Below are positions 8,389 through 9,759 of a stretch of DNA of 40,069 nt, piece after piece. The position numbers were made by a program, and so were the translations under genes. Below the pieces are notes generated by a model that saw only the letters and a list, made by a program, of their open reading frames with translations, was not told where the DNA came from and did no database searches. Within the stretch, counting starts at the first letter, position 1. The number at the start of each line of letters is the position of its first letter. Source of the stretch: a virus (taxonomy: Duplodnaviria; Heunggongvirae; Uroviricota; Caudoviricetes). The stretch is taken from IMG/VR virus record IMGVR_UViG_2526164633_000045, positions 1 to 40,069 of that record; one strand, given 5' to 3'.

Positions 8389-9233
8389 TGCTCCGCAATG
8401 ATTTTGATGGTTGTGGCAGTAAACGCCGCACCATTCGACTGAATGGTTAACGTGCTGCCATTTGAGGCAAGAAAGCCGTCTTTATCCACGCTGAAGAACG
8501 TAGCTAACAGGATGTTATCGGTTGTTGTCGCCGCATTACGACTGCTGACCAACGTGTCAGGAACAGAGCCGGAAAAGGTTAGCTGCATTGATCTGTTGGC
8601 GGTTCCGCTGGGCCACGTCCCGACAATCGACAGCTTGAAGAACAAGGTTTTGTTCTCGTTGAACACAACCATCTTGTTGTTAACGGTGTCGAAGAATGGT
8701 GCCAACGTTCCGGATGACGGCGTGAGCGTTTTCAGCAGGCTAACAAGGTTGGTCGGCGCTATCGGGATGGTTACTGATACGCCAGAGTAAACAACCTCTG
8801 ACTTCTTGCGAGCAGTGGCATACTCCAGAGCATCGATGCGCGTTTCATGGTCTGAAACCTGCGACTCCAGCGACTGAACTCTGGTATCAAGCGACGCAAT
8901 ATCGCTTTCATTCTGAGTGATTCGTGTTTCATGTTCCTGAAGAGTTGATTCTGCCTGGCTGATTCGCTCCTCATGATTAACAAGCGTTGCTTCCGCAACA
9001 GAAATTCGCTGCTCATGGTCAGCGAGAATCACATCCTGCTCATCGTTCCTGACCTGTGCATCATAAGCGCCCTGTCCGGCCTCGTTGGCCTTGTTAGCCA
9101 CGTTACCAACATCAGTGCCCTGTGCGATAACGTAAAGCAGATACGACTGCGAGAAGATATTGCGTGGAAGGACTGATGTGTCGAGCCGTGTAGCCTGAAT
9201 GATTACCGGCACATTGAGATTCGAATCAGCCAT
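8385..9233 (-). CDS. Tail needle (P22 gp26-like) with extended C-terminal knob domain
   Basis: From [43 protein letters not shown]...[16 protein letters not shown] matches the P22 gp26 N-terminus, followed by heptad coiled coil (HETRI... repeats) and a C-terminal beta-rich domain absent from P22. Start refined to the ATG at 9233. Confidence 0.85.
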
Positions 9234-9759
9234 TAACATGCCTCCATGCCTTGCCATTTACAATTCTACTAACCTTTGAATTGTGAATTCCAAATAATTT
9301 AGCAACTTCACACTGAGGAAATCCATTGGCAACCATTTCTTTTATCTTTATGACATCATCATTAGATATTTTAGAATTACCATTCCTTTCTCCTTTTACA
9401 TTACCTCTCGACTCCAATCCATATGAGTGTGAGATATTTCCTGATGGAGTAACCCATTCAAGATTTAGATAGTTATTATTATATTTATCACCATCTATAT
9501 GATTTACCTGTAACCCTTCAGCAAATCCACCAACAAAGTGAGATGCAACAAGCTTATGTATTAGTATGTTCTTTTTTACGCCATCCTTATATAAACACAC
9601 ATACTTATATCCATTTACGTTATGATTATGCTTCAGCCACCTACCCTTAATAAGACGTCCCCTCAAATTTACTCTTGAATGCGAGTAAACTCTACCATCA
9701 TTAGTGATGGCGTACAGTCCTTCATATCCTTCGATATCTTTTGCGTTTTCACTTAACAT
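9226..9759 (-). CDS. Free-standing HNH homing endonuclease (NUMOD4-like N-terminus, HNH core, C-terminal HTH)
   Basis: [16 protein letters not shown] (NUMOD4-like), HKLVASHFV...[20 protein letters not shown] (HNH); AT-rich compared with flanking structural genes; wedged between gp10 stop and gp26 start with overlapping ends; AAGGAG RBS. Confidence 0.8.

Follow-up and report, generated by a model that had tools for sequence, protein, structure and literature searches.

An AT-rich cassette carrying a NUMOD4/HNH endonuclease gene and a recoded gp10 3′ end at the gp10/gp26 junction of a P22-like Escherichia coli prophage

Anatomy of the gp10/gp26 junction

The window analysed here is a stretch of 40,069 nucleotides (positions 1 to 40,069 of IMG/VR record IMGVR_UViG_2526164633_000045, Caudoviricetes) and represents a P22-like (Lederbergvirus-type) Escherichia coli prophage. 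Part of its virion operon, encoded on the minus strand, contains gp4 (11209-11670; Pfam P22_Tail-4), gp10 for the tail hub or packaged-DNA stabilisation protein (9781-11199; Phage_stabilise, E = 9e-281), an HNH endonuclease gene (9226-9759), gp26 for a tail needle with an Sf6-type knob (8385-9233; Phage_tail_NK, E = 2e-115, and the RefSeq annotation of the identical E2863 locus), and gp14 (7906-8388; DUF2824). A preliminary description of this sequence had placed a NUMOD4/HNH endonuclease gene at 9226-9759, between P22-like tail genes that are otherwise contiguous. Both points hold. The gene is an intact 177-amino-acid open reading frame (ORF) with both Pfam domains above the gathering score, its neighbors are assigned by Pfam, and in phage Sf6 gp10 and gp26 abut, with stop and start shared as TAATG. 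The anomalous unit at this junction is larger than the HNH gene and is a cassette of ~870 bp (9234-10099), made up of a foreign gp10 C-terminal segment and the HNH gene. The native 3′ end of gp10 has given way to it, and gp10 and gp26 no longer adjoin as they do in most related phages.

The preliminary description also had the HNH gene overlapping both neighbors, which is correct for the gp26 start and incorrect for gp10. Between the stop codon of gp10 (9781-9783) and the start codon of the HNH gene (ATG at 9759) lies a 21-nt spacer (9760-9780) that holds the gene's own ribosome-binding site, an AAGGAG Shine-Dalgarno sequence (9765-9770, minus strand) 5 nt upstream of the ATG. Spacer and Shine-Dalgarno sequence are kept in the other E. 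coli and Citrobacter loci compared, with CAGGAG as a variant in one of them (L009), and the Providencia locus has a 27-nt spacer of different sequence. At the other end, the HNH stop overlaps the gp26 start by 8 nt (ATGGCTGA, 9226-9233), with the gp26 ATG at 9233. A GGAGG Shine-Dalgarno sequence for gp26 (9241-9245, minus strand; TGGAGGCATGTTAATGGCTGA) lies inside the codons for the C-terminal WRHVNG of the HNH protein, with a gap of 7 nt to the gp26 start. Because the 3′ end of the HNH gene encodes both GGAGG and the overlapping stop, gp26 keeps a ribosome-binding site and stop/start coupling. No sigma-70-like promoter was found on the coding strand upstream of the HNH gene, which is therefore probably read within the late operon, and the two essential neighbors, gp10 and gp26, presumably both stay expressed. 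In E. coli M160133, an IS1A insertion sequence lies between gp10 and the HNH gene (L019, 872-1569).

The HNH ORF has a GC content of 0.346, whereas the window averages 0.474 (z = -2.7; among 534-nt windows it falls in the lowest 1.6%), and its GC content at third codon positions (GC3) is 0.26 compared to 0.53-0.57 in the neighboring genes. The lower GC content had been pointed out in the preliminary description, but the anomaly exceeds the ORF and runs ~320 nt into gp10 (9781 to ~10099, minus strand), covering the last ~106 codons. This gp10 tail (mapped as 9781-10101) has a GC content of 0.36 and a GC3 of 0.23, compared to 0.51 and 0.53 upstream. The first 360 codons of gp10 have 94% nucleotide and 99% amino acid identity to Sf6, amino acids 361-472 have 54% and 65%, and identity is ~95-100% again from the gp26 ATG onward. 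The native, Sf6-like part of gp10 (10102-11199, minus strand; 94-95% nucleotide identity to Sf6) serves as the upstream homology arm, and gp26 as the downstream one. The AT-rich boundary lies at gp10 nucleotide ~1100 in the window and in a Citrobacter locus, and at ~1128 in three other loci. From ~3.5 to 23.5 kb, a span that includes the virion genes, no GC minimum other than the cassette tract is listed.

By sequence, the attached gp10 tail is a xenologue, and it is under purifying selection (ratio of nonsynonymous to synonymous substitution rates, dN/dS, of 0.08-0.16). A scan of the GTDB species-representative genomes for a donor of the tail gave a single match, in Citrobacter (66%). Protein database matches to the tail were for the most part incomplete gp10 fragments, with 97% identity in E. 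coli, 92% in Salmonella, and 78% or less in the rest. A P22-like Providencia rettgeri prophage with the HNH gene in this slot was considered as the donor and rejected; its tail is 71% identical to the window tail and 63% identical to the Sf6 tail. The RefSeq label of the HNH gene is already "NUMOD4 domain-containing protein," and the recoded gp10 tail tied to it carries no annotation in the records examined.

The product of 9226-9759 is, by sequence and predicted fold, a full-length I-HmuI-type HNH endonuclease. Pfam identifies NUMOD4 (E = 5e-13, amino acids 7-57) and HNH_3 (E = 5e-10, amino acids 67-108), and a predicted C-terminal helix-turn-helix region matches HTH_23 weakly (E = 0.0016, below the gathering score). 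A sequence search of the PDB gave one significant match, I-HmuI (1U3E, E = 8e-21), which aligns over amino acids 7-174 of the query and 4-163 of 174. An AlphaFold2 model built with 27 homologues has a mean predicted local distance difference test score (pLDDT) of 88.8 and consists of N-terminal strands (beta strands predicted within amino acids 16-66), an HNH core, and three C-terminal helices at amino acids ~133-167 (pLDDT > 90). Foldseek searches of the PDB with this model placed 1U3E first (E = 7.8e-10, probability 1.00, template modeling score 0.53, 179 aligned columns), and it is the only match with E ≤ 0.001, the next having E = 0.04. The score of 0.53 would fit a flexible, extended multi-domain protein modeled without DNA. 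Residues H87, N99, and N108 align with H75, N87, and N96 of I-HmuI and are invariant in the 27 homologues. The acidic metal ligand that precedes the catalytic histidine in I-HmuI, D74, corresponds to N86, which is also invariant in all 27 aligned homologues. ORFs are intact in all 11 loci compared, with no frameshifts or stops, and dN/dS is 0.13 at a dS of 0.47 between the window allele and the Citrobacter allele.

Three other origins of the gene were considered and rejected. An endonuclease encoded by a group I intron is incompatible with gp10 and gp26 being separate complete ORFs, and a search for introns or other RNA families in 8800-10500 gave no Rfam match at E ≤ 1. P22-like phages package DNA by a headful mechanism, and a terminase-associated HNH protein (HK97 gp74-type) is at odds with a gene that lies between tail genes and is absent from ~90% of related loci; the distance to the terminase is ~8-9 kb in the near-identical E2863 prophage. 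A second HNH ORF of the window (23790-24356) is not a paralogue, since the two have no tblastn similarity and the second has an HNH_3 + AP2 architecture.

Distribution, alleles, and lateral movement

The occupancy of the junction was surveyed in 5,426 complete E. coli genomes, of which 909 contain a gp10/gp26 region. The junction is uninterrupted and Sf6-type in 821 of these, and the AT-rich gp10 tail is present in 56 (~6%); ~32 genomes with a partial match were left unclassified. Most tail-bearing genomes (34/56) carry the window allele across the whole region. An HNH gene was found at the slot in all eight annotated E. coli loci and all nine IMG/VR prophage contigs inspected, and every tail-bearing locus inspected also has an HNH gene. 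Among 184 phage records with a protein-level match to the gp10 tail, only HZ41 has the AT-rich type (95.6%), the others having 68% identity or less, and HZ41 carries a different HNH allele in the same slot. The slot is empty in Sf6, Gally, Kapi1, and N7.

At least five alleles with ~50-60% protein identity occupy the slot: WP_000947776 (the window allele), WP_021514124, WP_042048397, and two from Logan assemblies (L009 and L010). Citrobacter has an 87% relative there and Providencia rettgeri a 44% relative. The alleles start 21-27 nt after the gp10 stop, overlap the gp26 ATG by 8 nt, and have in common the first ~28 codons and a C-terminal WRHVNG or close variant. Within this conserved frame, the body of the endonuclease is replaced. 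In the Providencia rettgeri locus, the gp10 next to the HNH gene (L011, 1680-3473) encodes 597 amino acids and has an insertion of ~125 amino acids relative to the 472-amino-acid enterobacterial gp10.

Comparisons of individual loci drew on a sample of ~30 P22-like loci. The cassette was compared between the window and two IMG/VR prophages (L026 and L028) to locate islands of identity. The gp10 tail and the HNH gene are 95.6% and 96% identical, the 114 nt that immediately precede the tail 89-93%, and the rest of gp10 79-83%. On the other side, the next 160 nt of gp26 are 71-72% identical, and gp4, the coat gene, and the rest of gp26 are essentially unalignable. The island thus spans window positions ~10213-9234, with 89-96% identity. 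Its left edge varies among prophages and lies inside the gp10 body at ~10213 or ~10700, and its right edge is sharp and never more than a few tens of nucleotides away from the gp26 ATG. One HNH protein occurs beside both knob-type and P22-type gp26, and beside different gp4 types. Vertical descent does not yield a cassette that is more similar between prophages than its flanks are. The pattern is that expected if gene conversion carried the cassette into diverged genomes and co-converted flanks of variable length. A further prophage (L025) matches the window closely (95-98% identity) in two stretches, one running from ~10700 across the cassette and the other covering gp26 beyond its 5′ end. 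At window positions 9054-9211 its identity is only ~71%; in the comparison with L025 and L023, the first ~50 gp26 codons form a mosaic patch of their own.

Homing and competing explanations

These comparisons establish that the cassette has a foreign composition and a sporadic distribution and has spread laterally with co-converted flanks, alongside its anatomy, its family membership, and the purifying selection acting on it. We consider it likely that 9234-10099 is a free-standing homing-endonuclease cassette that has spread with co-conversion, encoding an enzyme presumed to be active. The preliminary description had similarly proposed a selfish homing endonuclease that invaded a structural operon, which the I-HmuI homology, the sporadic occupancy, the foreign composition, and the identity island all support. 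Two refinements apply: the insertion was not clean, as a foreign gp10 C-terminal segment travels along, nor was it a one-off, as a diverged family of alleles holds the slot in several genera.

By analogy with characterized enzymes, we infer enzymatic activity, the type of cleavage (nick or double-strand break), a target site, and self-immunity, and the cassette could spread as follows. A carrier phage would meet a related phage or prophage without the cassette, and its enzyme would introduce a site-specific nick or cut into the allele that lacks the cassette, most likely in or beside the 3′ region of gp10 that the cassette replaces, or where gp10 and gp26 meet. The carrier would then serve as template for homologous repair, and the cassette would be copied in through one crossover somewhere in the body of gp10, which is conserved, and another at the start of gp26, which is strongly conserved. 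Protection of the carrier from its own enzyme would come from the divergence of its AT-rich gp10 tail or from the interruption of the junction. With only 54% nucleotide identity to the empty allele, the carrier's tail is compatible with such resistance. The asymmetric edges of the island, like the left boundary of the AT-rich tract that differs between loci, would be compatible with cleavage on the gp10 side; the indication is weak because the 5′ end of gp26 is a general mosaic joint.

Several observations weigh against homing as the full account. In P22-like phages generally, a mosaic boundary falls at the conserved 5′ end of gp26, and the sharp right edge of the island is not specific to homing. 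Cleavage, target site, and biased inheritance are predictions for this protein and its close relatives, and the window copy resides in a prophage, its expression as part of the late operon being presumed. The acidic ligand equivalent to I-HmuI D74 is absent, with asparagine in its place; this residue is probably tolerated as the normal state of the position in this clade, since it is invariant across it. The AT-rich tail is 97-98% identical beside three very different HNH alleles, although the HNH genes at those loci are only ~58% identical in DNA. Because one tail accompanies three such alleles, it is not obviously matched to the specificity of one enzyme. Alleles with ~45-50% identity occur in Escherichia, Citrobacter, and Providencia, and the association with the junction is therefore old. 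Vertical descent combined with ordinary mosaic recombination, and not nuclease-driven homing, could be behind part of the pattern.

The sharing of one resistant-looking gp10 tail by several alleles also bears on an alternative in which the nuclease is domesticated or weaponized, kept mainly for damaging competing phages or prophages without the resistant gp10 allele (marker exclusion or competition between phages) or for another phage function, with its own spread secondary. Purifying selection and uniformly intact ORFs would be expected in that case as well, relatives of the I-HmuI/II type cut intron-plus and intronless DNA alike (PMC3428280), and marker exclusion is caused by T-even endonucleases (PMC2988022). 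The comparative data, however, give the same picture under this explanation as under homing and speak to it at most indirectly, and the rarity of the cassette in E. coli prophages (~6%) argues against a strong general advantage. We regard this explanation as improbable.

The age of the association raises a second alternative, that the HNH gene is an ancestral resident of the P22-like gp10/gp26 junction and was lost in most lineages. Diverged alleles (44-87% amino acid identity) sit at the exact slot in three genera, with 21-27-nt spacers and the 8-nt overlap, and alleles in the same slot imply a long association with the site. The preliminary description had named universal presence in related phages, with matching composition, as the sign of an ancestral gene. 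Instead, ~90% of the E. coli P22-like loci are uninterrupted (821/909), and the GC3 of the cassette is 0.23-0.26 compared to 0.53-0.57 in its flanks. The cassette is also far more similar between prophages than the flanks are, its gp10 tail is xenologous (65% amino acid identity to Sf6 compared to 99% for the rest of gp10), and phylogenies of cassette and backbone are incongruent in a sample. An ancestral gene is therefore quite improbable. A decaying relic, in which an inactive endonuclease is shuffled with its cassette by the general homologous recombination of lambdoid phages, would account for the asparagine at the D74-equivalent metal ligand, the IS1 beside the gene in one strain, and the generic mosaic joint at the gp26 5′ end, but is hardly credible given a dN/dS of 0.13, the lack of frameshifts and stops in 11 loci, the invariant catalytic histidine and asparagine residues, and the conservation of N86 throughout the clade, including distant members, which suggests a functional state.

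A broader version of homing-driven spread is possible but doubtful. The gp10/gp26 junction may be a long-standing contest site at which at least five alleles with only ~50% protein identity swap in a conserved frame, bounded by the AT-rich gp10 tail and the first ~28 codons on one side and by WRHVNG and the gp26 start on the other. The gp10 tail would then be a shared immunity module, and nuclease-driven conversion, not random recombination, would set a mosaic boundary within the essential tail-hub protein of temperate enterobacterial phages. If so, the junction would provide a tractable P22/Sf6 model for homing in lysogens.

Known systems and related genes elsewhere

The closest characterized proteins are I-HmuI of the Bacillus phage SPO1 (1U3E), I-HmuII, I-BasI, and I-TwoI, which belong to a similar length class (177 compared to 174 amino acids). 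Like I-HmuI, the window protein has an N-terminal NUMOD4 beta-sheet and an HNH core of the beta-beta-alpha-metal type, in which the catalytic histidine and two asparagines are conserved, and it probably has a helix-turn-helix at its C-terminus. Identity to I-HmuI is ~31% in the Foldseek alignment, and D74 is replaced by asparagine. Enzymes of the I-HmuI type nick DNA site-specifically, and their genes lie in group I introns (PMC3428280). Unlike this group, whose introns interrupt DNA polymerase or nrd genes, the window gene is free-standing between structural genes.

In this respect it resembles the Seg and Mob endonucleases of T-even phages (such as SegG and MobE; "intronless homing"), which are likewise intergenic, sporadic, located beside essential genes, and co-inherited with a diverged flanking block. 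The cut made by a free-standing phage endonuclease usually falls hundreds of base pairs away from the gene of the enzyme, and the sequence in between, which is not the same in carrier and target, is co-converted (PMC2988022). The T-even enzymes are GIY-YIG (Seg) or Mob-type HNH proteins of virulent myoviruses, whereas the enzyme described here has an I-HmuI-type architecture and is found in a temperate P22-like podovirus prophage. A further difference from the T-even systems is that the flank inherited with the gene encodes a recoded C-terminus of the tail-hub protein.

Homing endonuclease genes (HEGs) adjoin essential phage genes and boundaries of exchange (PMC10448857), and the HEGs of ICP1 and other phages (Barth, Dunham & Seed 2023, PMC10448857) are comparable to the present case in that a nuclease gene marks the exact point where a conserved segment meets a swapped one, beside an essential structural gene. 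The ICP1 study mainly concerns T5orf172 and IPA-HNH families, islands of >10 kb, and virulent phages; the cassette here is ~0.9 kb and lies in a lambdoid virion operon. No paper on an endonuclease at the gp10/gp26 junction was found in the literature searched, which did not include the main surveys of P22-like prophages.

The cassette belongs to a known class of mobile elements, of which it is a clear-cut if ordinary representative. What sets it apart is the co-traveling recoded gp10 C-terminus, the presence of several alleles in one frame, and the built-in translation signals for gp26. With such a homing-endonuclease cassette, a portion of an essential virion component (the last ~106 residues of the tail hub, gp10) can pass from one temperate phage to a diverged one, which would be a tangible way for mosaic joints to arise in the virion operons of lambdoid phages. 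The gene is absent from Sf6, HK620, and P22, all of them amenable to genetics, and their empty site is open to direct tests of homing, co-conversion, and marker exclusion between temperate phages and prophages.

Related NUMOD4-HNH genes with 43-50% amino acid identity and a near-identical N-terminus occur elsewhere in P22-like phages. One is found in the gp4/gp10 slot of Salmonella phage UPF_BP1 (L002, 4075-4659) and another between the Q antiterminator and holin genes of a Salmonella prophage (L014, 3501-4019). The homologue of this second type does not have the WRHVNG end that overlaps gp26. Similar homologues away from the gp10/gp26 junction occur in phages ST-35, N7, and 29485. This distribution suggests that one endonuclease clade has colonized several junctions of P22-like phages.

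The second HNH ORF of the window (23790-24356, minus strand, 188 amino acids; HNH_3, E = 4e-11, and a weak AP2 domain) is located in the nin region between ninF and ninG, overlaps the start of ninG, and coincides with a local GC minimum. It may be another free-standing homing endonuclease. Further low-GC stretches outside the virion operon are found at ~1-3000, which corresponds to the acyltransferase/tailspike end in the E2863 annotation, and at ~29500-33500. The E2863 prophage, which adjoins dacD, has 99.7-99.97% identity to the window in three aligned blocks. Its gene 4 is interrupted by the insertion sequence IS1203 (at window position ~11283-11287), whereas gp4 of the window is intact and without IS1203, and it holds ~186 bp more than the window at ~23211-23213 (L006). 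Two tRNA genes on the minus strand, tRNA-Thr(tgt) at 21817-21892 and tRNA-Asn(gtt) at 21898-21972, lie between the Q antiterminator and holin genes of the window.

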